A program made the position numbers and the translations under genes. Below, in pieces: positions 3,049 to 20,287 of a stretch of 32,000 nucleotides of DNA (position 1 is its first letter; the number at the start of each line of letters is the position of its first letter). The notes under the pieces were generated by a model that was not told where the DNA came from, ran no database searches, and saw only the letters and a program-made list of their open reading frames with translations. Source of the stretch: an uncultured Muribaculaceae bacterium (GTDB taxonomy: Bacteria > Pseudomonadota > Alphaproteobacteria > Rs-D84); NCBI GenBank assembly GCA_965231035.1, contig OZ246409.1, positions 331,101 to 363,100 of the forward strand, given 5' to 3'.

Positions 3049-3870
3049 TTAGAAATCAATTCCAAACTTTGCACCAACTCCGTATGCGTCTTTATTATAG
3101 TCTGAATCAAGCATCTTTGTTCCATAAATGCCGACAAACTTTGCGGAATCAATATTATAGTTTACACCAAATTCTGTATTCCACTTTTTATCGCCGTATA
3201 CATAGTTAGCAAAAGGCATCATACTATCATCAGCTATGACTTTTGAATAAATAGCACCAGCAGTCAAATTCCAGTTATCAGACAAAGAATATTGACCTTT
3301 TACACCAAACTTCCAAATAGTAAAGTGAAGTGAATCAGCATATTTATCTTCTAAATCATCTTTCCAATAGTTGTATTCTGCTGTACCTGCAACTGCCCAA
3401 TTATCGCCTTTCATGCCAAAATTAGTTCCTGCTGTCCACAGGTATGCAATTGTTTCCAACCCAGAAGATGTTGCTACACCAGCCTGAGAATATAATTGTG
3501 TAACTTTGCCGTAAACATCAGCTTTGAACATACCTTCATCCAAATAACGATATGTCAATCCCAAAGCTAAATTATCCCAACTGTAATTATCATCAGACAT
3601 TTTTGTGCTTGTTGGATAAAAAGCAGAAGCATTTGTATTCAAAAATACTGCTAATTTATCGCTTATTCCGTATCCAAATTCTTCGCCAGCTGTCCACATA
3701 CGATAATCATAAACACTATCTTCCAGTCCGACTGCTGTTCCAACGTTTGTCAAGCTGTAGAAGTGATTTTCACTTGGACGATACAATGGATTTCCATCAA
3801 TTATATTTGCTGCATTTGCGCCTGAAATTGCAAAAATTGCCAAAAACGATACCAATGCTATTTTTTTCAT
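3049..3870 (-). CDS. Outer-membrane beta-barrel protein (porin-like), secreted
   Basis: Signal peptide MKKIALVSFLAIFAISGANA preceded by an AAGGA RBS. The sequence has alternating amphipathic, aromatic-rich strands and the C-terminal GAKFGIDF (terminal Phe) OMP signature. I prefer the start at 3870 over the track start at 3909. Confidence 0.6.
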   Translation of the reverse strand: MKKIALVSFLAIFAISGANAANIIDGNPLYRPSENHFYSLTNVGTAVGLEDSVYDYRMWTAGEEFGYGISDKLAVFLNTNASAFYPTSTKMSDDNYSWDNLALGLTYRYLDEGMFKADVYGKVTQLYSQAGVATSSGLETIAYLWTAGTNFGMKGDNWAVAGTAEYNYWKDDLEDKYADSLHFTIWKFGVKGQYSLSDNWNLTAGAIYSKVIADDSMMPFANYVYGDKKWNTEFGVNYNIDSAKFVGIYGTKMLDSDYNKDAYGVGAKFGIDF

Positions 3871-3964
3871 ATTTTTTCCTTTTTTATTTTTTTGAACACA
3901 CAGGTTCAAGTTATTATATTCTATTAAAAATATCGTAATATTTCAAAGAGAACATAATCCTTCT

Positions 3965-4008: not shown

Positions 4009-4602
4009 TTAGAACATATAGCGTGCACCCAACATATATGACCATGCTGGAACGTTCAATGTTACATCACTATCCTCATCAGTTGTCAAGTCATGTATTG
4101 TATATTTTGCACCCAAATCCAATGCAAAATTAGAATCAATTGGGTATACAACACCAGCTGATATGCCGTATGCTAAACCAGAAGCGTCTATATCTTCACT
4201 GCCAGAACCGACTGTTCCAAAAGCATATCCTACGCCCAATCCAACATATGGTTTTACAACCCATGATGCATCACCAAAATCAGCATATCCATTAACCATA
4301 ACTGTGCTATAAGATAATGTCATTGCATCAGCAGAAGAATCTTCTTCTGTATCAGCATAAACATATTCCAATTCAGCACGCAAACCAACAGTAGAAGAAA
4401 CATCAAAAGATGCACCACCGGCAATTGATCCCATATAACCAGACATATCTGGCGTTTCAGCCATTTTTACACCATTTTCTTCAACATCTGCCTTTGCAAC
4501 ACTGTCATATCCCAATTTCAAAGAAGCATAAGGTGTAACTGCTGCACTTGCTGCACCAGCCGCAAATACAGCCAATAAAGAAGTCAAAACTATTTTTTTC
4601 AT
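4009..4602 (-). CDS. Small outer-membrane beta-barrel protein (OmpA-barrel/Omp25-like)
   Basis: Signal peptide MKKIVLTSLLAVFAAGAASA, Gly/aromatic-rich strand pattern, and C-terminal LGARYMF. Confidence 0.6.
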   Translation of the reverse strand: MKKIVLTSLLAVFAAGAASAAVTPYASLKLGYDSVAKADVEENGVKMAETPDMSGYMGSIAGGASFDVSSTVGLRAELEYVYADTEEDSSADAMTLSYSTVMVNGYADFGDASWVVKPYVGLGVGYAFGTVGSGSEDIDASGLAYGISAGVVYPIDSNFALDLGAKYTIHDLTTDEDSDVTLNVPAWSYMLGARYMF

Positions 4603-7008: not shown

Positions 7009-7040
7009 TTTTGGTGGTTTGATTTTTGGTCGGAGTGGCG
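7009..7040. repeat. Proximal copy of the 32-bp direct repeat, overlapping the last 14 nt of tRNA-Pro
   Basis: Identical to 6819-6850. This copy also forms one arm of the tRNA terminator hairpin aaaccacc/aaaaa/ggtggttt (6999-7019). Confidence 0.9.
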
Positions 7041-7103
7041 GGGTTCGAACCCACGACCTCTGCGTCCCGAACGCAGCACTCTACCAGGCTGAGCTACACT
7101 CCG
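7027..7103 (-). tRNA. tRNA-Pro (anticodon CGG), CCA encoded
   Basis: The minus strand CGGAGTG TA GCTC AGCCTGGTA GAGT G CTGCG TTCGGGA CGCAG AGGTC GTGGG TTCGAAC CCCGC CACTCCG A CCA folds by hand as a 77-nt cloverleaf. G37 is consistent with Pro tRNAs. Confidence 0.93.
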
Positions 7104-9644: not shown

Positions 9645-10643
9645 TTATTCTACTATATTATCAATCATACGGTTCATATTTTGTCGGAAATCTTCCCGAT
9701 TAGAAGCCCAAATCAACTGCTTACTCATAAATTTATAAACATCATCCATTGTCAAATTTTGGATTTTTGCATTACCAGCAACCCGTTTCCAAGCCATTCT
9801 GGGATCGGTTAAATGATATCCGCCGCGACCCGGGAAAACCCATTTCCCATTCTGAGGCAGGTCCTGTAAAACAACAACCGCAGCATCTGACAAAGGGTGA
9901 TTTTTCCATGTGTAATGGTTAAAATCTAAATCACGCCACTGCATAGAAAACACCTTGGACTTTGGTATAAACCCGTAAATAAGCATTAAAAAGGCAGATC
10001 TTAGCACCTGAGACTTTTCTTTATTTATTGCAATTAAAAGTCTATCAAATCCGGCCCTGGTCAGTGGACGAACACGACGTTGTTCTTTTACTTTTTCTAT
10101 ATTTGAAACCGGATTTTCAGAAAGATACCCACTTTCTATTGCAAAGTTGAATATGCTGTGCACCAGTTCTTGCATACGGTTTCTGACAACATTACCATCA
10201 ATTTTATCCAACAATTCTTTGACTGTATCAGTATTTATTTCTTGGATATTTGATTCAAATATTGGTCCCAAGTGTCTGACCATTGAACGAACCAATTTTG
10301 CCAAAGATGTTTCGGTCCGATGAACTTTCTTAGTTAAATAAATATCTGCTACTCTTCTGAAGCTGACTTTTTTATGGCGTAGTTTTGGTTTTACACTGGC
10401 AGCTCTTAAAACTTCGGGAACCATAATTCTAGCATCAGCAATTTCAACATCTGGGTATTTTCCGATGATAATTCTGCGGTCATGACCATTTACACGCTTT
10501 CTGACAAAAAAGCTTTTTACCCCGCGATTTGTTATGTACATGCGAAGTCTGGGCTCGGCAGAATCCTGAACCACGTCAAATCCATTACTGGGGATGGGCA
10601 AATTGTCCAAAATATAAGGATTAAACAGAAACTGATGCGCCAT
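9645..10643 (-). CDS. P4-type (DUF4102 arm-domain) integrase homologue, apparently catalytically dead
   Basis: The N-terminus FFVRKRVNGHDRRIIIGKYPDVEIADAR matches the P4-integrase arm-binding domain and is followed by a SAM-like core-binding region. The expected catalytic R, HxxR and Y positions are not conserved (see findings). Confidence 0.6.
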   Translation of the reverse strand: MAHQFLFNPYILDNLPIPSNGFDVVQDSAEPRLRMYITNRGVKSFFVRKRVNGHDRRIIIGKYPDVEIADARIMVPEVLRAASVKPKLRHKKVSFRRVADIYLTKKVHRTETSLAKLVRSMVRHLGPIFESNIQEINTDTVKELLDKIDGNVVRNRMQELVHSIFNFAIESGYLSENPVSNIEKVKEQRRVRPLTRAGFDRLLIAINKEKSQVLRSAFLMLIYGFIPKSKVFSMQWRDLDFNHYTWKNHPLSDAAVVVLQDLPQNGKWVFPGRGGYHLTDPRMAWKRVAGNAKIQNLTMDDVYKFMSKQLIWASNREDFRQNMNRMIDNIVE

Positions 10644-10664: not shown

Positions 10665-12452
10665 CTAAACTTTCAAAGCATTTATAAATGCGGTTTGTGG
10701 GATTTCGACATTACCGAATGTCCGCAAACGCTTTTTACCCTCTTTCTGCTTTTCTAACAATTTTCTTTTACGCGTAATATCACCACCATAACATTTGGCT
10801 GTAACATCTTTTCTGAACGCAGCGATTGTTTCACGAGCAATAATTTTTCCACCAATTGCCGCCTGGATTGGAATCTTGAATTGATGTCTTGGAATCAAAT
10901 CTTTTAATTTTTCAACAATTTGGCGACCACGTTTTTCCGAAAAAGAACGATGACATAAGAATGATAGAGGTTCGACATTCTCTTCATTAACAAGAATAGA
11001 TACCTTGACCAAATCAGATTCCTGGTACCCCTGCAAAACGTAATCAAAGCTGGCATAGCCACTGGATAAAGATTTCACACGATCATAAAAATCAAAAACT
11101 ATTTCCGCCAATGGCAACTGGTAAACCAAAACCACACGGTTTCCAACATAAGAAATATTTTCCTGAACCCCACGACGTTCAGAACACAGTGCCATAATTC
11201 CACCCATATATTTATCCGGCATCATTATTGTTGCACGAACCCAAGGTTCTTCAATTGATTCAATTAATGTTAAATCTGGAATATCGGCTGGATTTTCCAA
11301 ATCCAGAACTTCACCATTACGCAGGTGCAGCTTATAAAGCACGCTGGGAATTGTATTAATCAGATTCAAATCAAATTCACGAGATAATCTTTCGTTTATG
11401 ATTTCCATATGCAGCAGACCCAAAAAGCCGCAACGCAAACCAAACCCCAGCGCACTGGATTTTTCAACTGTGAACACAAACGAAGCATCATTCAATGCCA
11501 ATTTTTCGGCGCCATCACGCAGATTCGGGTAATCATCTGCCTCTACCGGAAAGAAGCTGGAAAACACAACCGGGATGCTGGGTTTGAACCCGGCCAACCT
11601 TTCAACTGTTGCACGCGCATCTGTAATTGTATCACCGACCTTGCAGTCATGAATTGTCTTCATACCGGTTATGATAAATCCAACTTCACCTGTGGCCAGT
11701 TCATCCACATTAACCATCTTGGGTGTAAAGTATCCGATTTTATCAACAATATATTCTGCGCCTGTTGCTATAAATTTAATCTTTTGACCGCGTTTCAAAC
11801 TTCCATCAACAACACGAACCAAAACCACAACCCCCAGATACGAATCGTACCAAGAATCAACCAACAACGCCCGCGTTGGTGAATCGGCATTTCCCTTTGG
11901 GGCTGGTAATTTTTTTACAATTTCTTCTAATAATTCAGGAACGCCCTGACCTGTTTTTCCAGAAACAGACAAAGCATCCTTTGCATCCAATCCAATAACA
12001 TCGGCCATTTGATCCTTGGCGGCCTGAACATCACTGGAAGGTAAATCAATTTTATTTATAACCGGCAACATTTCCAAATTGTTATCCAAAGCCAGATAAG
12101 CATTTGCCAATGTTTGTGCCTGGACGCCTTGGGTTGCATCAACCAAAATCAAAGCACCTTCGCATGCGGCCAAACTGCGTGAAACCTCGTAAGTAAAATC
12201 CACATGACCAGGGGTATCCATCAAGTTTAACTGATAAACTTCACCATTTTTCGCAGTATAATTCAAACGAACAGTCTGAGCCTTGATTGTAATTCCTCGT
12301 TCGCGTTCGATATCCATACTGTCCAGAACCTGGGCCTTCATTTCACGGGATTCCAATCCCCCTGTGAATTCAATCAATCTGTCCGACAGTGTCGATTTAC
12401 CATGATCAATGTGAGCGACTATTGCAAAATTTCTGATATTTGATTGTTTCAT
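10665..12452 (-). CDS. lepA: Elongation factor 4 (LepA)
   Basis: [26 protein letters not shown]...DTPGHVDF...NKIDLP and the LepA-specific C-terminus ...[26 protein letters not shown]. Confidence 0.96.
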
Positions 12453-12717: not shown

Positions 12718-13197
12718 ATGTTGGCGAATGTTACTTATGAAAATGGATTAAACGAATGTAAACCCGGCAACAATATTTGCAGTATTTTACATAAACCAAA
12801 TCCAGATATTGAAAAATTTATAAATGATGTTGATCGCAGTGGCTCATGCACCAATAAATCAAGAATTGAATATTTCCTTAACAAGGTTGATTTTGGAAGT
12901 TATATACTAGTTCGGTGCGTTAAAAAAGATAAAATTGTTCTTATGACACACGAAGAAATTAAAAAAATCCCAGGCAATGAAAATCTTGATACATTATCAA
13001 TTGATTTTTTGAATAAATCAGAGTCTGATCGTGGTGATTTTAAAAGGCTATTATCCTGCAGGAAAATTATTGATAATATTATGCAAAATCCGCCAAATGA
13101 ATGTACAAAATTAGCTTATAAAGAGTTAGGTCTAAGAGTTGACCGTCGTTTAATAGAATTAAAAAATAATCTTATAAAATGTGACTATTCAAAATAA
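12718..13197 (+). CDS. Hypothetical Cys-motif protein, paralogue 1 (159 aa)
   Basis: Shares F-x-[TN]-x3-[FY]-G-[GS]-x2-[PL]-x2-C-x-K...I[VI][FL] with the next two ORFs. No signal peptide. Confidence 0.6.
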   Translation: MLANVTYENGLNECKPGNNICSILHKPNPDIEKFINDVDRSGSCTNKSRIEYFLNKVDFGSYILVRCVKKDKIVLMTHEEIKKIPGNENLDTLSIDFLNKSESDRGDFKRLLSCRKIIDNIMQNPPNECTKLAYKELGLRVDRRLIELKNNLIKCDYSK

Positions 13198-13199
13198 AA

Positions 13200-13529
13200 A
13201 TGTCAAAAGTCAGTATATTTTACCGTGGTATTGAATTAAACTGCGCAGATTGCGACAATAATTGTCATGCAAAAAATCATTCTGAACAGGAATCAAGAAA
13301 AAAGATTTTTATGACTTTATCAAACTATGGTGGAATGATGCCTTTTCATTGTGAAAAAAATAAAATAATTGTTTTTATAAAAGTTCACGAAATGCCTTTA
13401 AATTCTGATAAAATTGTATTTCGTAAATATTCAGAAAATAAAAAGCCACAATTGATTTGGAAACAAAATTTATCTGCAAAAAGAAAAATTATAAAGAATC
13501 TTTTAGAAGAAAATATTGTTATAAAATAA
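13200..13529 (+). CDS. Hypothetical Cys-motif protein, paralogue 2 (109 aa)
   Basis: Motif C-x2-C-x3-C-x-AK-x7-RK-x2-F-x-T-x3-YGG-x2-P-x2-C. Starts 2 nt after paralogue 1 ends. Confidence 0.6.
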   Translation: MSKVSIFYRGIELNCADCDNNCHAKNHSEQESRKKIFMTLSNYGGMMPFHCEKNKIIVFIKVHEMPLNSDKIVFRKYSENKKPQLIWKQNLSAKRKIIKNLLEENIVIK

Positions 13530-13539
13530 AAGTATTGCT

Positions 13540-13911
13540 ATGAAATTCTTATTTAATAAAAACACTCTAAATAACAATGAAAAGAAACCTAATTGCTACT
13601 GTGCAAATGGTTGTGTTGCAAAACAAAAAGTGCAACAAAATATCAGAAAATCAAGATTTCTTACTGCAAAAGATTTTGGTGGGTATATACCATACTTTTG
13701 TCCTTTTTTTGAAAAATTAATTTTTTTAAAGCCTTCGGATTATAAATTTTTTCCAAATAATAAATTCTTACTTTATGATAAAAATACCAAAATATACTCT
13801 TGGGATAAAGATACCGCTGATCCGTATCGTCAATCTGTCAAAGATGAATTGTCCCCTAAACCATCTGATATTTTGCAAAATAAAATAATATTTTCAAAAA
13901 GATCCAGATAA
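13540..13911 (+). CDS. Hypothetical Cys-motif protein, paralogue 3 (123 aa)
   Basis: Motif C-x-C-x3-C-x-AK-x7-RK-x2-F-x-T-x3-FGG-x2-P-x2-C, colinear with paralogue 2. Confidence 0.6.
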   Translation: MKFLFNKNTLNNNEKKPNCYCANGCVAKQKVQQNIRKSRFLTAKDFGGYIPYFCPFFEKLIFLKPSDYKFFPNNKFLLYDKNTKIYSWDKDTADPYRQSVKDELSPKPSDILQNKIIFSKRSR

Positions 13912-14014: not shown

Positions 14015-14362
14015 ATGAAACCGAGTTTATCTTTCAGAAATAATAATCCTGGAAATTTAAGATTCAGCGAATTTACAATCAGGCATGGTGCAACACACGA
14101 ATCGAATGGGTTTGCGGTTTTTCCAAATTACGAAGTTGGATTTGCAGCGTTATGTGCATTGTTCAAAACAAAAAGTTATCGTGAACTTGGTCTTTATTAT
14201 GCAGTACATCGCTATGCCCCGGCATCTGAAAATAACACTGAAAATTATATAAAGTTTATTGAAAACCAAACAGGTTTTTCGCGTGATGAATTTGTAAAAG
14301 ACCTGGACATTACAAAGCTGGCACAAGCAATTCAAAAATTCGAAGGATGGATACCAAATTAA
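14015..14362 (+). CDS. Hypothetical protein with NNPGNLR ... YAPxxENNT motifs (phage-associated family as I recall)
   Basis: MKPSLSFRNNNPGNLRF...GFAVFPNYEVGFAAL...HRYAPASENNTENYIKFI. An AAAGGA RBS precedes it. No signal peptide. Confidence 0.5.
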   Translation: MKPSLSFRNNNPGNLRFSEFTIRHGATHESNGFAVFPNYEVGFAALCALFKTKSYRELGLYYAVHRYAPASENNTENYIKFIENQTGFSRDEFVKDLDITKLAQAIQKFEGWIPN

Positions 14363-15373: not shown

Positions 15374-15883
15374 TTATTCAACCCAAATGGTTGCATAAGT
15401 TGTTGCTGTTTCAGAGCCTATTGGAATTTTCACATTAGATTTTGTAACATTCAATGTATCTGTTCCGACAGATACATCAGAAATAACGTAACCAGTTCCA
15501 GACGTTGTAACACTGGCCAAACCAGATTCACCCGCAGGACCTTGAATTCCCTGGGGACCTTGGGGACCAATTTCGCCTTGGGGACCCTGTGCACCAGTTT
15601 CACCTTGGGGACCTTGGATACCTTGAATTCCCTGGGAACCTTGGGGACCAGTTTCACCCTGAGGACCCTGTGCACCAGTATCTCCGGTATCACCTTTTGG
15701 ACCCTGAGGACCAGTTTCACCCTGAGGACCTTGAGGTCCAGGAATCAGAGTTACTCCTTCTACAACCCTATCAACATAGGTTTTACTTGCAATATTACCC
15801 GAAGCATAGCCAACAGTGGTTACTATAATTATAGCAACAAGAGAAACCGAAAAAATGCAATTTTTTTTCGTCATATCAACCAT
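15374..15883 (-). CDS. Collagen-like triple-helix repeat protein (169 aa), signal peptide or signal anchor
   Basis: An N-terminal hydrophobic segment and the IASKTYVD motif are followed by 24 uninterrupted G-X-Y triplets ([19 protein letters not shown]...[13 protein letters not shown] 15521-15739) and a ~48-aa C-terminal domain ending TYATIWVE. Confidence 0.85.
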
Positions 15884-15933
15884 ACTGAGGATAAATTTAA
15901 AACACTCTTACACGAAATCATAATATTTTTATT

Positions 15934-15961
15934 TGTGTGAAAAAAGAGTTTTTTTCACACA
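15934..15961. other. Strong intergenic stem-loop between fibre genes
   Basis: tgtgtgaaaaaa / ttttttcacaca forms a 12-13-bp perfect stem with a 3-4-nt loop. Confidence 0.5.
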
Positions 15962-15973
15962 AAACAAAAAATA

Positions 15974-16831
15974 TTATCTTTCTACAACTTCCCAAGTATA
16001 TGCTGTTCCATCAAAAGTCAGAACACACTTGCTGGTTGGATTGGAACATGCACCCGGTGCAGCTGTCGCCAATGTACCCAGACTTGCTGTATCAGCTTTT
16101 AATCCCAATGCTGTATTAATAGCTGTTGATGTCATAGCATCAGTGATACCATATCCAGACAATGTTGTTGCTTTATCAGCTTTTGTTCCCAACGATGTAT
16201 CAACTTCTGTTTTTGTATAAGTTGTTGCCTGATCAGCTTTTGCTGCTAAGGCTGTATTAACATCAGCTGTATTTGCTTTTGCTGCTAATGCTGTGTTTAC
16301 ATCGGCTGTATTCGCCTTGGTTGCCAAAGAAGTGTCAACTTCTGTCTTGGTATATGTTGTTGCCTTATCAGCCTTGGCATCTAATGCAGTATTAACAGTT
16401 GCGGTTTGTGCATAACCAGTCAAGTCAGCAGATTGCAATGCTGTATCAGCCTTGCCCAAAGAAGTTTGAACATCTGTTGCCAACTTTGGTTTCGTTACAT
16501 TACCATCTACGATATCAGCAGTTCCAACAGTACTTTTTGTTGCCAATGCACCCAAACTTGCTGTATCAGCCTTTGCACCCAATGCTGTATCAACTTCAGT
16601 CTTGGTATATGTTGTGGCTTGATTTGCTTTAGCTGCTAAAGATGTATCAACTTCACTTTTTGTATAAGTTGTTGCCTGATCAGCTTTTGCTGCTATTGCA
16701 GTATTAATTGTTGTTGTTTGCGATGTATTTTGAGCATCAACATAGTTCTTACTGGCGATTTCAGCATTCGCTGCGCTTGCAAAACCTGCTGCAACTAAGA
16801 TAGCAAACAGACTAGTGGTTATTTTTTTCAT
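15974..16831 (-). CDS. Secreted tail-fibre-repeat protein (285 aa)
   Basis: Signal peptide MKKITTSLFAILVAAGFASAANA and EIASKNYVD. There are at least 5 copies of TTYTK[ST]EVDT[SA]L, ANTADVNTALAAK repeats, LSGYGITDA, and the C-terminal C-x6-C-VLTF...YTWEVV. A GGAGA RBS precedes it. Confidence 0.8.
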   Translation of the reverse strand: MKKITTSLFAILVAAGFASAANAEIASKNYVDAQNTSQTTTINTAIAAKADQATTYTKSEVDTSLAAKANQATTYTKTEVDTALGAKADTASLGALATKSTVGTADIVDGNVTKPKLATDVQTSLGKADTALQSADLTGYAQTATVNTALDAKADKATTYTKTEVDTSLATKANTADVNTALAAKANTADVNTALAAKADQATTYTKTEVDTSLGTKADKATTLSGYGITDAMTSTAINTALGLKADTASLGTLATAAPGACSNPTSKCVLTFDGTAYTWEVVER

Positions 16832-16869
16832 ATTTTTATCTCCTTAATTATATCTTGTATGTTTAAACT

Positions 16870-17772
16870 TTATTGAACTGCAACATCTTCCCAATAAACC
16901 GTTCCTGTTGTTTTATTTATGCTTAACACGCATTGTGCTTGTGCGCCTAAACAGTTTGCAGATGGTTTTGGAACAGAATATGTTTCAACAGCATTTACAG
17001 TTGTATACTTGGTTGTGCTGCCAGTATCTGTTGCGATGTTGTTTGATTTATTAGCAACATCTTCTTTTCCAGACAGGTCTGTATTAATACCTGTTACTAC
17101 ACCACCAACATAGCTTTCAACTGCATGTACAGTCGTATACTTACTTGTGCTGCCTGTATCTGTTGTCATGTTATCTGACTTATTTGCAACATCTTCCTTA
17201 GTTGCCAACGCTGTGTTAACATCTGTTGTGTTTGCTTTTGTTGCTAATCCAGTATCAACATATGTTGTATCTGCTTTGGTTGCCAATGCTGTGGTTACAT
17301 CTGTTGTGTTTGCTTTTGTTGCCAATTGACCATCAACATATGTTGTGTCAGCTTTTGTTGCCAAACCTGTGTTAACGTCTGCTGTTTTTGCATAATCTGT
17401 CAAATCAGCTGATTGCAATGCTGTATCTGCTTTGCCCAAAGTTGTTTGAACATCCAATGACAATTTTGGTTTAGTTACACTTGCATCATCAATATCAGTT
17501 GTTGTAACTGTACTTTTTGTTGCCAATGCACCCAAACTTGCTGTATCAGCCTTTGCACCCAATGCTGTATCAACTTCAGTCTTGGTATAAGTATCCGTTT
17601 TATCAGCTTTTAAATTCAATGCCGATGTTGTATTTGTAGAAAGCGTTGCATTTTGAGCATCAACGTATCCTTTACTGGTCAACTGAGTATCTCCAGGAGC
17701 TGCCTGAGCTGTACCAGCGCCAATCAGAATTACTGACATGACACCAAAAAAGACTATTTTTTTGTTTTTCAT
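16870..17772 (-). CDS. Secreted tail-fibre-repeat protein (300 aa)
   Basis: Signal peptide MKNKKIVFFGVMSVILIGAGTAQA and LTSKGYVDAQN. Also TYTKTEVDTALGAKADTASLGALATKSTV, ATKA[DN]TT[YD]V repeats, a duplicated VANKS[DN]N[MI][TA]TDTGST[ST]KYTTV[HN]AVE[ST]Y unit, and the C-terminal C-x6-C-VLSI...VYWEDV. Confidence 0.8.
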   Translation of the reverse strand: MKNKKIVFFGVMSVILIGAGTAQAAPGDTQLTSKGYVDAQNATLSTNTTSALNLKADKTDTYTKTEVDTALGAKADTASLGALATKSTVTTTDIDDASVTKPKLSLDVQTTLGKADTALQSADLTDYAKTADVNTGLATKADTTYVDGQLATKANTTDVTTALATKADTTYVDTGLATKANTTDVNTALATKEDVANKSDNMTTDTGSTSKYTTVHAVESYVGGVVTGINTDLSGKEDVANKSNNIATDTGSTTKYTTVNAVETYSVPKPSANCLGAQAQCVLSINKTTGTVYWEDVAVQ

Positions 17773-17923
17773 TTTTTTCTCCGTTTTTGTTTTTTATCCC
17801 TTTTTTCTTTTTTAAGAAAACAGGTATATTTTCTTGTGATATTCAAAAATTTTTCAACTTATGCTTATCACTACTCCCTTATTTGATTCAGTTGACTAAA
17901 CAACCAAACCTTATCTACACTTT

Positions 17924-19372
17924 TTAATAAGCTACTTTAAACCAATCTGTTTGTCCGTTATTTACAACCATAACATAGTCAGAACCATCCGCAGGTGCGC
18001 CTGTGGTACTTGGAACATCCCCTGGTTGCAAAGCTGTATCCGCCTTGCCCAAAGAAGATTGAACATCTGTTGCCAACTTTGGTTTTGTAACATTGGCATC
18101 ATCGATATCATTTGTTGCAACAGTATTCTTCGCAGCCAAAGCACCCAAGCTGGCTGTATCTGCTTTTGTCGACAAAGAAGTATTTACTTCTGTTTTTGTT
18201 GCATAGTTGGACATATCGGCCGATTGCAATGCTGTATCTGCTTTATCCAGAGAAGATTGGACATCCGTCGATAATTTTGGTTTAGTAACATTCGCGTCAT
18301 CAATATCTGTTGTTGCTACTGTATTCTTTGCAGCCAAAGCACCTAAACTCGCTGTGTCTGCCTTGGTTGATAAATCTGTTTTTGTAGCATAATTAACTAA
18401 ATCCGCTGGTTGAACTGCTGTATCTGCTTTGGCCCCTTGGACAGATGTTGCATAATTAGCAGCAGCAGCATTTATCGCAGCAATAATTGCTGAATTCATT
18501 TCCAGTGTTGTTGAATATCCTGACAAATCAGCACCAGATCCAGGTTCACCCTGTGGACCTTGGGCACCAGTATCACCTTTGTCACCCTTTTCGCCTTGAG
18601 GACCCTGTAATCCTTGTTCACCCTGTGGGCCTTGTAATCCCTGCTCTCCTTGGAGACCTTGTAAACCTTGTTCACCTTGAAGTCCCTGGGCACCATCAGC
18701 ACCTTTTAAATCTTGCAGGGATACCAAGTTAGTCCATGTACTGGATGCATCGTCATACTTCCATTGAATATGCGTTCCGTCTGATTGTAATAATATTTTT
18801 TCGCCGTTTACATTAACTGCGGATATAACACCATTTGCAATTTCAATCCCCGCACCAGCTGTTAAAATATCTTGTTTTGAATCTAATAATGTATCAGTTT
18901 CTGTTTTTGAATACTGATTATCATTAGCATCTTTTATATTATCTACTCTGGTATCTAAAACATCTATTTGATTTTGTAAATCTGTGTTATTACCTGTGCT
19001 GCCATTTGATGTGCTATAGCTGGGATTTTGAGATCTGATAGAGCTGCCACCACCAACATTTTTTCCACCACTTAAATATTTTCCAACAGAAAGTCTTGAA
19101 GAATAATAGCCAGAAGAATTTCTGGCAACACTTGTATCATTGGAATCAGAAGAAGTACTTGTTGAAGAACTGTCTGTATCAGTATTTGAATTTACTCTGA
19201 TAGACGCAGCACGCAAAGAACCCGTACGTGCAGCTGTTGCATCGGAAGCACTGTTATATGTAGTCGCACCACCAAAAGATCTTATGGACGGAGCAGCATG
19301 TACACCACTAAAAGTGGTTGTACAAAAAACGCAAACTATTGATAATAATGATATCTTTACGTTATGTCTCAT
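17924..19372 (-). CDS. Secreted collagen-like plus tail-fibre-repeat protein (482 aa)
   Basis: Signal peptide MRHNVKISLLSIVCVFCTTTFSGVHA and a Ser/Thr/Asn-rich region. HIQWKYDDASSTWTNLVSLQDLKG leads into 19 G-X-Y triplets (DNA 18533-18703), followed by two tandem ~63-aa units containing DTASLGALAAKNTVAT.DIDDANVTKPKL.TDVQSSL.KADTALQ. Confidence 0.85.
   Translation of the reverse strand: MRHNVKISLLSIVCVFCTTTFSGVHAAPSIRSFGGATTYNSASDATAARTGSLRAASIRVNSNTDTDSSSTSTSSDSNDTSVARNSSGYYSSRLSVGKYLSGGKNVGGGSSIRSQNPSYSTSNGSTGNNTDLQNQIDVLDTRVDNIKDANDNQYSKTETDTLLDSKQDILTAGAGIEIANGVISAVNVNGEKILLQSDGTHIQWKYDDASSTWTNLVSLQDLKGADGAQGLQGEQGLQGLQGEQGLQGPQGEQGLQGPQGEKGDKGDTGAQGPQGEPGSGADLSGYSTTLEMNSAIIAAINAAAANYATSVQGAKADTAVQPADLVNYATKTDLSTKADTASLGALAAKNTVATTDIDDANVTKPKLSTDVQSSLDKADTALQSADMSNYATKTEVNTSLSTKADTASLGALAAKNTVATNDIDDANVTKPKLATDVQSSLGKADTALQPGDVPSTTGAPADGSDYVMVVNNGQTDWFKVAY
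18025..18410. repeat. Tandem ~190-nt duplication inside the 482-aa fibre gene
   Basis: Two adjacent near-identical coding units (approximate boundaries 18025-18222 and 18223-18410). The same module occurs once each in the 285-aa and 300-aa genes. Confidence 0.75.
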
Positions 19373-19431
19373 TAATTCTCTCTACCCTCAACAGTATACC
19401 ACATTTTTGACCCTCATAAAAGTGCCTATTT

Positions 19432-20142
19432 TTAAAATTCGTATCTTAACCCCAAAGAAAACTGATTATCTAAAACCAAACCAATATCTGATTTAAAATA
19501 ATACTTCTCATAAACATCATCTTTATCAGGATCTGCTTCAAAATATCTGGTATGACTAGTACCGTAAAAACCAGCAATTCTATAACGCAAATCCAAAATA
19601 AATCTGTAATCTAATCTGTGTGAAAGTCCAAAAATCAAGCCACCCATTGGTGATAAAGATGTTTTCTCACGATTACCTGGCAGAAAAGCATCCCAATTCC
19701 AAACTGTTTTTGGAAATGCCAATCCAGCCGAAGCACCAAGATACAAACCATTTCTGAAATCATACAAAGCACTTGATAAAACATACGGTGTTGAAAAATT
19801 AAATTCGATGCCTTGATCTTGATCTGTGAACGTTCCTGTGTAACCTGCTTCAACTTCACCACGCCAAAAATAACTAAAGGATTTACCAATTGTAAAACTG
19901 CCACCAAAAGATGGTGAAAAAGAATATTTATCACAAGAGTATTCTTTTTGTGCATCTTTTGTATCATTCGAATTATAATTATTTGTCCAACTAAGCATAT
20001 TCATTTCGGCACGAAAACCCATGTACCATCCGGTTTTTTCTTCGTAAACCCTACGATTATCACCAATTAAATAATCTTGAACTGCATCGGCCTGCGAAAC
20101 AGTAAAAAAACACAATAAAAAAGCGTATAACAATCTCTTCAT
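19432..20142 (-). CDS. Outer-membrane beta-barrel protein heading the fibre gene cluster
   Basis: Signal peptide MKRLLYAFLLCFFTVSQADA, amphipathic strand pattern, and C-terminal SLGLRYEF. The start at 20142 is preferred but not certain (the track gives 20178). Confidence 0.6.
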   Translation of the reverse strand: MKRLLYAFLLCFFTVSQADAVQDYLIGDNRRVYEEKTGWYMGFRAEMNMLSWTNNYNSNDTKDAQKEYSCDKYSFSPSFGGSFTIGKSFSYFWRGEVEAGYTGTFTDQDQGIEFNFSTPYVLSSALYDFRNGLYLGASAGLAFPKTVWNWDAFLPGNREKTSLSPMGGLIFGLSHRLDYRFILDLRYRIAGFYGTSHTRYFEADPDKDDVYEKYYFKSDIGLVLDNQFSLGLRYEF

Positions 20143-20287
20143 AACATTTTGATGTATATACATCATATCACAAAACAAAGTACCATCAAAACGCTAAATC
20201 CCTAAAATGTTATAACTTGTTAATTTATGACTAAATTTAAGAGCTTGATACTTGACCATAATAAGTTTTTTTACTAATATCCATCCC

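Follow-up and report, generated by a model that had tools for sequence, protein, structure and literature searches.

Are fibre genes with phage-like repeats, set in the chromosome of a bacterium with a very small genome, the leftovers of a virus or a surface apparatus of the cell itself? Five consecutive minus-strand genes raise this question in the 32,000-nucleotide stretch analysed here (the window), which belongs to the chromosome of an uncultured alphaproteobacterium allied with the order Rs-D84 (Candidatus Enterousia). Rs-D84 genomes are smaller than 1 Mb and encode no flagella, and dependence on partner cells has been proposed (PMC12306168); members of the lineage live in guts and digesters. 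The locus is most likely surface attachment gear rather than leftover virus. It is probably a conserved operon of the Rs-D84 type that encodes a small outer-membrane barrel together with Sec-exported, likely homotrimeric, N-terminally attached surface fibres for adhesion; for these proteins we infer the trimeric state, surface location, adhesive role, anchoring partner and outer-membrane route.

All five open reading frames described in the first-pass annotation were found at its coordinates on the minus strand. From upstream to downstream they encode a small beta-barrel outer-membrane protein (OMP, 236 aa, 19432..20142) and the fibre proteins F4 (482 aa, 17924..19372), F3 (300 aa, 16870..17772), F2 (285 aa, 15974..16831) and F1 (169 aa, 15374..15883, with Met4 at 15874 as the probable start), separated by 59, 151, 38 and 90 nt. 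A terminator-like hairpin, already reported missing from the 59-nt OMP–F4 gap, is present in none of the gaps. The OMP frame opens at a TTG (19432-20178, 248 aa), and the ATG at 20142 agrees with the orthologues. The OMP gene and ftsE diverge, and the region that separates them (20143..20251, minus strand) is the probable cluster promoter; it holds a promoter-like TTGATG-16-TATGAT with a TG extension (20189-20162, minus strand) just 5' of this ATG, a match to consensus only.

Signal peptides were called heuristically from an n-region, a hydrophobic core and a -3/-1 site, and these features occur in the OMP and in all four fibre proteins. The N-terminal signals read earlier therefore stand, except that F1 does not carry the signal anchor once assigned to it: orthologue N-termini read MIKSKGIFAVSLIAM..AYA/NIASQGYVD (slashes mark cleavage sites), an ordinary signal peptide. 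Orthologues from about 80 species show the same signal peptides and AxA sites. In the five proteins no other hydrophobic segment lies beyond the cleavage site (maximum 19-residue Kyte-Doolittle value 1.27), and autotransporter barrel, lipobox, LPXTG and transmembrane anchor are absent from the four fibre proteins, as had been claimed. No autotransporter or TPS barrel was identified as a route across the outer membrane.

Each fibre protein appears to be built of four parts. A signal peptide, cleavable and conserved within its class, comes first, followed by a short conserved N-terminus as the future mature end. Next is a freely exchangeable shaft that uses collagen triple helix, coiled coil or phage-tail-fibre repeats, and in relatives YadA-head repeats; a small class-specific beta element closes the C-terminus. 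The mature end is an IASKxYVD motif in F1–F3, corresponding to the [IL][AT]SKxYVD motif recognised earlier (IASKTYVD in F1, IASKNYVD in F2 and LTSKGYVD in F3), and a domain of about 100 aa with three motifs in F4. In F1 the C-terminal element is probably a knob like that of phage fibres; F2, F3 and F4 probably each end in a foldon-like hairpin.

F4 represents the base class, whose members are always first after the OMP. Its signal peptide (residues 1-26, VHA/AP, 19295..19372) belongs to a consensus, MKxxLKISxLSIVCVLC...A.A/ASSVR, conserved in 78 sequences. The class-specific N-terminal domain defined by alignments (residues 27-125, 18998..19294), a candidate cell-proximal anchor, has three conserved motifs, ASSVRSLGGxGTY, RxGSVRV and PRLSIGKYLGGxxSVSGGSS, joined by S/T-rich linkers. 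A search of 1.84 billion proteins yielded only 39 representatives, each with the domain at residues ~24-130, and no PDB relative was found. The shaft includes 19 G-X-Y triplets (residues 224-280, 18533..18703; Pfam Collagen E 2.4e-9), and PHROG tail-fibre matches reach upstream of the collagen (residues 171-223). The C-terminal hairpin (..GAPADGSDYVMVVNNGQTDWFKVAY, 17927..18010; class consensus APxDGxDYVLVxNNGxxxWxxV) bears a suggestive resemblance to foldon: T4 foldon scored against the F4-class HMM above 5000/5000 shuffles, and the PDB-wide match reached E 1.2 only.

The remaining three proteins are shorter. F3 has its signal peptide at residues 1-24 and LTSKGYVD at 31-38, and ends in a C..x6..CVLSI...W.DV hairpin. 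F2 has its signal peptide at 1-23 (ANA/EIAS), IASKNYVD at 25-32 and the C-terminus CSNPTSKCVLTFDGTAYTWEVVER; its AF2 monomer, at low confidence (pLDDT 55), is a helical rod with a hairpin at 269-280. F2 and F3 have paired Cys residues in their C-terminal hairpins, which fits an oxidising extracytoplasmic location. F1, with a signal peptide and IASKTYVD, carries a collagen run (15515-15739, minus strand; Pfam PF01391, E 9e-17) and a C-terminal domain conserved among related clusters (15377-15514, minus strand). The collagen runs reported for F4 and F1 are thus real, and that of F1 counts 25 triplets, not 24.

Relatedness to phages resides in the shaft. Strict TTYTK[ST]EVDT.. units number four in F2, which also contains GYGITDA, the LSGYGITDA-type motif noted before, and one in F3; F4 has one degenerate unit. 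The F2 repeats match the L-shaped tail fibre of PDB 8hqz (E 5e-10), and the unit also occurs in T5-like ltfAB and in homologues bearing Mtd_N or T7-tail N-domains. Its identification as a phage tail-fibre repeat is borne out to the extent that real phage fibres have it, but no Pfam tail-fibre repeat family, including PF03406, matched any window protein at E<=1. PHROG matches were obtained for F2 (phrog_5004, 7.5e-30; phrog_10305 tail fibre, 4e-14), F3 (phrog_5004, 2.7e-15) and F1 (phrog_18350 tail fibre, aligned through residue 163). A repeat search (family D1) further revealed a 263-nt shaft module common to the paralogues, at 16368..16630, with copies in F3 (17348-17610, 81%) and F4 (17961-18223 and 18159-18421, 63-65%), all on the minus strand. 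It encodes ..LGALATKxTVxxxDIxDxxVTKPKLxxDVQxSLxKADTALQ.., the part commonest in viral contigs. Viral contigs match F2 over residues 35-243 only, which is shaft, and never reach the N- or C-termini; by these alignments, only the shaft appears to be common to phages and cluster proteins.

Such homology of repeats and collagen cassettes to phage tail fibres could mean that the fibre genes are what is left of a degraded prophage or tailocin, and within 6 kb of the cluster there are an integrase-like gene and an ORF of 115 aa that resembles a phage lysin. This explanation is largely refuted and we give it hardly any weight. As first reported, the window holds no phage structural or lysis genes; capsid, tail, baseplate, chaperone and lysis genes were found neither there nor in the adjacent contig, and no prophage or tailocin, whose presence just outside the window had been named as fatal to a surface-fibre reading, occurs in the wider contig. 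The integrase-like and lysin-like genes are conserved chromosomal genes in a Zodletone relative too. Signal peptides stand in place of virion-attachment domains, the termini have no counterpart in viral contigs, and the cluster occupies one chromosomal slot in 78 species.

In the sequence analysed here the cluster is surrounded by dedA, rbfA, lepA, ftsEX, fabF, tolB, dnaN and ribosomal protein genes. Among related species, 78 loci extend far enough downstream, and in every one of them the cluster has its slot between ftsE and dedA. The gene order is kept as OMP, an F4-class gene, at least two IASKxYVD-class genes and an F1-class gene, and is identical in the Zodletone relative; the F4-class gene directly follows the OMP gene in 78/78 loci, and the F1 class, with its conserved C-terminus, comes last in 33/33 related clusters that contain it. 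The cluster is a chromosomal operon that holds its position across the order and comprises four protein classes, each tied to its place. It is not a recently domesticated prophage, and phage relatives exist for the shaft only; what survives of the proposed domesticated phage parts is that Sec-exported fibrous proteins reuse tail-fibre and collagen modules. N- and C-termini are kept per position, whereas shafts vary: protein lengths span 111-1023 aa (F1 class, 111-992 aa), about 9-fold within each class. Orthologues swap modules among collagen (7/105), YadA_head (2/105), Fibritin_C (1/105) and coiled-coil families. The OMP (46-65% identity) and fibres (30-60%) are much more diverged than flanking genes (60-90%); they evolve fast.

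The OMP, with signal peptide MKRLLYAFLLCFFTVSQADA and C-terminal ..LRYEF, is predicted to be an 8-stranded OmpA/Ail/NspA-like barrel. Its AF2 model (pLDDT 85) has eight long strands, its best Foldseek matches are the OmpA TM domain, Ail, NspA and OprG, and many of its 164 homologues carry PF13505. The suggestion that it serves as a dedicated export partner, in a split analogue of a trimeric autotransporter, is not supported: such a barrel is too small for a translocator, and no cluster protein has a YadA-type anchor. A role as fibre anchor is possible. The expected recurrence of OMP–fibre synteny was observed in 78/78 loci and in genome L014, the one genome in which the OMP and F4 N-domain pair is retained despite a changed neighbourhood. 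Because synteny in these reduced genomes extends to the entire neighbourhood (plsC-DUF218-ftsX-ftsE ... dedA-rbfA-lepA), OMP/F4 adjacency is weaker evidence than it appears and could stem from general genome stasis. A mirror-tree test gave no extra co-evolution of OMP and F4 N-domain (partial r 0.05, p 0.25).

This unspecific adjacency, the lack of extra co-evolution and the generic nature of the barrel would also suit fibres that, once secreted, are either shed or only loosely held, forming an extracellular matrix, coat or S-layer-like brush, with the OMP being the lineage's major small porin-like OMP, upstream by chance. Legionella Lcl, a collagen-like protein secreted by the T2SS, is a precedent, and NCBIfam similarity runs through collagen only. 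We regard release as unlikely: strictly conserved mature N-termini and a clade-restricted F4 N-domain argue for a docking interaction, and the OMP–F4 N-domain pair survives the neighbourhood change in L014.

For N-terminally attached surface fibres, we propose that Sec exports the chains. Trimerisation would start from the collagen or from the C-terminal hairpin, in the manner of collagen-like fibres and fibritin. On the cell surface the fibres would keep their conserved N-termini nearest the cell, the orientation of phage and Bdellovibrio MAT fibres, and would mediate attachment to partner cells, host cells or matrix. The anchoring element would most likely be the F4 N-domain, possibly with the adjacent OMP. 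Counting against this arrangement, distal ends are conserved and shafts variable, the opposite of the usual variable-tip receptor-binding fibres.

Sec export with no obvious outer-membrane route, coiled-coil or alanine-zipper-like matches in orthologues and flanking cell-envelope and division genes (ftsEX, tolB) could also accommodate periplasmic trimeric struts that would tie the outer membrane, through the OMP, to the inner membrane or peptidoglycan and would replace Lpp-type tethers in a reduced genome. We hold this to be improbable, since a ~9-fold length variation is a misfit with a fixed-width periplasm, and uninterrupted collagen in orthologues reaches 84 triplets (~70 nm, calculated at 0.29 nm per residue), which is too long for it and counts for surface fibres. 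Phage receptor-binding-type modules and YadA-head repeats are moreover typical of exposed adhesins, and the fibre proteins evolve fast.

Among known systems, the closest analogue of the proposed surface fibres appears to be the mosaic adhesive trimer (MAT) fibres of Bdellovibrio bacteriovorus, which combine a signal peptide, a conserved N-domain and a phage-like trimeric shaft (Caulton et al. 2024, PMC10769870). Both systems have a conserved element directly behind a Sec signal peptide, mosaic shafts that have relatives in phage tail fibres (the L-shaped fibre of T5), trimeric in MAT and likely so here, and multi-paralogue families in a bacterium that needs to recognise other cells. By description they differ in the N-domain, which in MAT is beta-rich and of ~130 aa, whereas F1–F3 have only a ~8-residue motif and F4 an S/T-rich three-motif region. 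MAT shafts are beta-helical and their C-terminal tips hypervariable, in contrast to the collagen, coiled-coil or repeat shafts and class-conserved C-termini here; MAT proteins often come with an S74 chaperone-protease, not found here, and their genes are scattered, while those here follow an OMP gene in a single ordered operon.

Type Vc autotransporter adhesins (YadA, BadA) are likewise Gram-negative, Sec-dependent, trimeric (presumably so here) and fibrous with exchangeable modules, and two orthologues of cluster proteins have YadA-head repeats. Their defining C-terminal 4-strand anchor, a 12-stranded barrel in the trimer, is absent here, where the conserved, presumably proximal end is the N-terminus and the neighbouring OMP is predicted to be a monomeric 8-stranded barrel, not a translocator. 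The collagen-like Legionella Lcl, Streptococcus Scl1/2 and Bacillus BclA, the last attached through its N-terminus, also join a signal peptide, a G-X-Y triple-helix stalk and a small C-terminal domain in an adhesin or surface-fibre role, putative here. Similarity to these is limited to collagen, with scores of 55-62 bits against family cut-offs of 325-500; LPXTG is lacking here, and collagen is one of several interchangeable shaft modules. Compared with phage fibres, the cluster proteins are Sec-exported from a bacterial core operon without virion-attachment domains or assembly chaperone genes. They nevertheless have in common ATTYTKTEVDxAL..KAD repeats with the T5 L-shaped fibre (PDB 8hqz), a foldon-like C-terminal motif AP.DG..YV...G..W with T4 fibritin, probable N-terminal attachment with fibritin, gp34-gp37 and the T5 fibre, and several consecutive fibre genes in fixed order with the T4 long tail fibre (gp34-gp37).

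The five genes of the cluster lie consecutively on the minus strand, from 20142 down to 15374. The first, OMP (19432-20142), encodes a 236-aa outer-membrane protein with a signal peptide and a C-terminal ..LRYEF; it is followed by four genes for exported fibre proteins, designated in operon order F4 (482 aa), F3 (300 aa), F2 (285 aa) and F1 (169 aa). A TTG at 20178 is an alternative upstream start for OMP, and the orthologues begin at the MKRL/MKKL position. There is a promoter-like site just upstream of the OMP start, and the intergenic gaps of 59, 151, 38 and 90 nt are all free of terminator-like hairpins. All five products show signal-peptide anatomy (n-region, hydrophobic core and small-x-small site); beyond it, the mature parts contain neither another hydrophobic segment nor a lipobox or LPXTG. 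F1, F2 and F3 carry [IL][AT]SKxYVD a few residues from the predicted signal-peptidase site. Units of TTYTK[ST]EVDT..L..KA[DN] are present in F2 (four) and F3 (one), F2 also having a GYGITDA motif. Uninterrupted G-X-Y runs extend over 25 triplets in F1 and 19 in F4, and Pfam Collagen (PF01391, gathering cut-off 27.2) scores 61 bits (E 9e-17) and 37.3 bits (E 2e-9), respectively. Both collagen assignments clear the gathering score. The first-pass annotation had described the cluster accurately. A 263-nt module is common to F2, F3 and F4, the F2 and F3 copies being 81% identical. Two independent Logan assemblies (L003 and L004) with the identical F4 break about 360 bp past F4, inside F3; their end at locus position 11813 corresponds to about 17560 in the window, where the F2-shared module lies, which suggests that the repeat has interrupted assembly or that the shafts differ between strains.

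The window belongs to a bacterial chromosome. Among the neighbours are rbfA, a DedA/VTT protein gene, ftsE-ftsX, DUF218, plsC, tolB, lepA, fabF, mltG, dnaN, S7/S12, EF-P and class II aldolase. Identical F3, F4 and OMP occur on contigs from metagenomes, up to 848 kb long and labelled Alphaproteobacteria bacterium. The nearest other genomes are two Zodletone-spring MAGs, followed by many gut MAGs that bear the names Candidatus Enterousia, 'Rickettsiales bacterium' (termite) or Alphaproteobacteria bacterium. Genes for capsid, tail, baseplate, chaperone or lysis proteins were absent from the window and the flanking contig, which upholds the earlier observation on the window and extends it to a wider contig free of prophage or tailocin; PADLOC returned no defence-system matches. 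A prophage or tailocin origin was rejected on gene context and synteny, because phage structural genes are lacking and the integrase-like and lysin-like genes nearby are conserved chromosomally in a relative. The integrase-like gene (9645-10643, minus strand, 332 aa) matches Arm-DNA-binding and Phage_int_M domains only, with no catalytic-domain match. The relative has this gene conserved beside lepA, and the tRNA-Pro at 7027-7103 is not its neighbour; rather than marking the boundary of an island, the gene looks like a domesticated or degenerate integrase. The lysin-like 115-aa ORF (14015-14362, plus strand) resembles a domain that lies internally in the endolysin, tape-measure and injection-transglycosylase PHROGs of phages (phrog_873, E 4e-16) and has no Pfam or NCBIfam match. 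It is a resident chromosomal gene, since a 148-aa homologue occupies the same place beside rbfA in the relative (L006). Between lepA and this ORF, a 25% GC patch holds three small paralogous Cys-rich ORFs of 159, 109 and 123 aa (12718-13911, plus strand) with the common pattern C.C.N.C.AK...GG..P..C and only a weak TRASH zinc-finger match; they are present on the identical metagenome contig and not recognisable in the Zodletone relative.

In all, 80 species-level loci were fetched via alignment of OMP homologues and annotated with phmmer and motif scans. An F4-class gene directly follows OMP on the same strand in all 78 loci with at least 660 bp downstream, so the synteny of OMP and fibre genes raised by the first-pass annotation recurs in related genomes. 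Where the contig continues, there are at least two more signal-peptide genes, most with an N-terminal [IVL][AT]SxxY[VL]. The fibre series ends with an F1-class gene in 33 of the 33 related clusters containing this class. Complete clusters have 3 to 10 fibre genes, most commonly 4, and occupy a slot between a divergent ftsE and a convergent dedA. The cluster is an order-wide operon at a fixed chromosomal position. One divergent MAG (L014) has other genes around the locus (UvrA, FtsJ, PKD-domain giants and transketolase), yet OMP and a short F4-class gene are still adjacent. The PKD signal-peptide proteins flanking this pair (L014 6137-15348) are of 1023 and 1260 aa and are not IASKxYVD fibres.

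Every operon position has a conserved signal peptide of its own, as well as its own conserved mature N- and C-termini, while the proteins differ greatly in length and in what the shaft contains. F4-class proteins (199 to 1023 aa) begin with MKxxLKISxLSIVCVLC...A.A|ASSVRSLGGxGTY, followed by RxGSVRV and PRLSIGKYLGGxxSVSGGSS, the three motifs being joined by S/T-rich linkers, and end with ..APxDGxDYVLVxNNGxxxWxxV. The F3 and F2 classes have the mature N-terminus IASKxYVD and the C-terminus P.P...C..x..CVL[TS]......W.[DE]V. F1-class proteins (111 to 992 aa) share the N-terminal IASKxYVD and have a C-terminus containing ..VTKGNV... These C-terminal elements are hairpins or knobs of 25-45 aa, conserved within each class. 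A word-index protein search with the F4 N-terminus gave only 5 matches and was replaced by an exhaustive HMMER search of 1.84 billion representatives, in which the F4 N-domain of about 100 aa matched 39 proteins; in all 39 it lies directly behind the signal peptide, at residues ~24-130. Its profile found no related structure in the PDB. A Pfam scan of 105 cluster proteins from 22 genomes identified Collagen in 7, YadA_head repeats in 2, Fibritin_C in 1 and assorted coiled-coil families, with no YadA anchor or S74 domain. At growing distance, identity to relatives is 60-90% for flanking proteins, 46-65% for OMP and 30-60% with indels for the fibres; mean pairwise distances over 66 species agree that OMP and the fibres are more diverged than the flanks. 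Strong conservation across the clade extends to the signal peptides of the fibre classes (window 19295-19372 and orthologues in L006-L085). Their consensus is MKxxLKISxLSIVCVLC for F4, with two invariant Cys in the hydrophobic core, MKVKNIAFSGFMAAIL for F3 and MKKLTAGIFTVLLG for F2. Such conservation is unusual for signal peptides and recalls the extended ones of large autotransporters, which are also conserved. A lipoprotein reading of CVLC in F4 was rejected; positions -1 and -3 are unfit for a lipobox and a conserved AxA site follows.

The variable shafts are where the relationship to phage lies. The repeat unit aligns to the L-shaped tail fibre PDB 8hqz (E 5e-10) and to a T5-like ltfAB gene. 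Its relatives include metagenomic proteins with Mtd_N, T7-tail-fibre N-terminal, Phage_fiber_rpt or gp53-like C-terminal domains, which contain TLAGYGITDAYTK repeats. The unit is a genuine tail-fibre shaft element. PHROG tail-fibre families match all four fibre proteins, reaching beyond the collagen in F4 and F1. Pfam tail-fibre repeat families, including Phage_fiber_2 (PF03406), gave no match at E<=1 on the window proteins; PF22337, PF12789 and PF18454 were seen only in distant phage homologues. In IMG/VR, viral matches are confined to F2 residues 35-243 and never include the N- and C-termini, and tblastn against a phage database gave short repeat matches only. Phage-type shaft cassettes are thus grafted between bacterial, clade-specific ends. 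The idea of domesticated phage parts is therefore right at the level of modules, the shaft repeats matching phage fibres and the termini not. The cluster proteins are not phage fibres; their genes are flanked by housekeeping genes and they have signal peptides where virion-attachment domains would be.

The AlphaFold2 model of OMP (22 homologues, pLDDT 85) has eight long strands and a disordered N-terminal extension. Its best Foldseek matches are the OmpA transmembrane domain, Ail, NspA, OprG (probability 1.0 for these four) and small Legionella porins. With its signal peptide, eight strands and C-terminal aromatic beta-signal (..RYEF), OMP has the features of a small 8-stranded barrel; homologues carry PF13505, the window OMP itself being below the Pfam threshold. 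As modelled, the barrel would let no trimer through, whether folded or even unfolded, and it does not resemble autotransporter, TPS or usher barrels. The earlier proposal that OMP is an export partner, or the translocator of a split trimeric autotransporter, is thus unsupported, the translocator role being rejected on the OmpA/Ail-like model. A possible role is that of a putative docking site for the fibres, for instance through beta-augmentation on a protruding sheet, as proposed for OmpX, or through linker threading as in RcsF-OmpA. Adjacency of OMP and F4 is in itself weak evidence for such an association because the whole region is syntenic, and a mirror-tree comparison of OMP with the F4 N-domain in 66 species detected no co-variation beyond phylogeny (partial r 0.05, permutation p 0.25). 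Independent support comes solely from the rearranged L014 locus. The window encodes another small OMP_b-brl protein (4009-4602, minus strand; PF13505 E 5e-12, Opacity/Surface_Ag_2 similarity) about 15 kb away from the cluster, adjoining a 286-aa ORF without any Pfam match (3049-3909, minus strand).

We classified the cluster as most likely encoding Sec-exported, phage-module-based trimeric surface fibres. With regard to trimeric autotransporters of type Vc, signal peptides are present, collagen implies trimers and YadA_head occurs in 2 of the 105 orthologues; the YadA-like membrane anchor (PF03895) is absent from the four window fibre proteins (E<=1) and from the 105 cluster proteins, and without it the fibres are not trimeric autotransporters. 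The proteins are also not orthologues of Lcl or Scl, since they fall far below the model cut-offs for collagen-like adhesins (NF046116, 61 and 55 bits vs 500; NF038329/NF038330, 32-62 bits vs 325-400) and LPXTG is absent from the sequences. Functionally, the nearest precedent is the MAT family of Bdellovibrio, in which a signal peptide is directly followed by an invariant beta-rich N-domain of ~130 aa, a phage-like trimeric shaft and variable tips (PMC10769870). MAT proteins are surface-localised with an unknown anchor, and their tips often have an S74 chaperone-protease (PMC10769870). The proteins described here likewise have a phage-tail-fibre-like shaft, judged from the 8hqz alignment (E 5e-10), the PHROG families and phage homologues with Mtd_N or T7-tail N-domains. 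In contrast to MAT, the shaft is of another type, the C-termini are conserved, S74 is absent and the genes form one ordered operon behind OMP. The N-terminal element is only ~8 residues in F1-F3, and the F4 domain is S/T-rich, which sets it apart from the MAT domain as described. F1-F3 have no room for a MAT-type N-domain because the F1 collagen starts 19 residues past the cleavage site and F2 is modelled as a helix from residue 23 onwards. Peptidase_S74 gave no match in the window proteins or the 105 cluster proteins, PDB sequence searches matched no MAT tip structure, and a literature search found no description of this locus.

In the proposed assembly, the chains would cross the inner membrane by Sec and fold into homotrimers, as G-X-Y collagen obliges. 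The C-terminal hairpins look like the foldon motif of fibritin, AP.DG..YV...G..W; the T4 fibritin foldon outscores 5000 of 5000 shuffles against the F4-class hairpin HMM, and one orthologue matches Pfam Fibritin_C at 6e-6. A single hairpin sequence found nothing in the PDB, and a profile search returned fibritin at no better than E 1.2. Homology to the foldon is therefore no more than suggestive. The AF2 monomer of F2 (pLDDT 55) has a hairpin at residues 269-280 and was left out of the fold search. Paired Cys in F2 and F3 fit an oxidising compartment. An external fibre is favoured over a periplasmic strut because collagen runs in orthologues reach 84 triplets (about 70 nm) and length varies roughly 9-fold within a class. 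Phage fibres, fibritin and MAT fibres suggest, by analogy, that the conserved N-termini would lie nearest the cell. Adhesion is the most likely function, and the most economical one in a lineage proposed to rely on other cells. The usual pattern of variable tips is reversed here, with C-termini conserved and shafts variable; binding may occur along the shaft, or the ends may serve assembly. Taken as surface fibres, as originally suggested, the system is plausible, and comparative genomics has strengthened the case.

It is rather unlikely, in our estimate, that the four classes are parts of one apparatus and not four independent adhesins. If they were, F4, the sole class with a clade-specific N-domain, would be the base, held in or at the outer membrane by the adjacent OMP, e.g. 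through beta-augmentation or with the S/T-rich linker of F4 passing through the barrel in the way that RcsF threads the OmpA barrel. The other classes would use their IASKxYVD N-termini to dock onto the foldon-like caps at the C-terminus of the fibre before them, giving an end-to-end or branched multi-segment fibre with the F1 knob at its end, like the T4 gp34-37 long tail fibre but Sec-exported. The gene pattern fits this arrangement, the first gene being without the N-motif, the last without a hairpin cap and the middle genes, variable in number, having both. If true, it would be a new way to anchor and assemble diderm surface fibres, independent of type V secretion and pili, and a probable host- or partner-attachment organelle for a whole order of ultra-small gut alphaproteobacteria.

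Enterousia belongs to the order Rs-D84, whose genomes are under 1 Mb with no flagella and almost no biosynthesis (PMC12306168). Its members are widespread in ruminant, human, bird and termite guts, and an obligate symbiotic or parasitic life with other cells has been proposed for them, with no attachment or interaction machinery described (PMC12306168). The fibre operon is a strong candidate for this machinery because it is kept at the same site in every examined species of a streamlined lineage, and its shafts are remodelled from species to species with phage-derived modules. It would widen an idea documented so far for Bdellovibrio MAT, that of phage fibre architecture placed behind Sec signals for recognising other cells. 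A universal, fast-evolving multi-gene fibre system in these abundant, uncharacterised bacteria raises a concrete question of anchoring and export, and the IASKxYVD motif, the F4 N-domain and the hairpin caps are tractable handles on the anchor and the outer-membrane export route.

In a sheep-colon MAG (L027 10784-18321), the cluster is expanded to 10 signal-peptide genes from OMP to dedA, many of 110-250 aa. In L006 (14400-16000), as well as L015, L017 and L033, a gene of 520-540 aa with Methyltransf_24 and Glycos_transf_2 domains, absent from the window, lies between the last fibre gene and dedA; these domain matches hint that the fibres in some species may be glycosylated.
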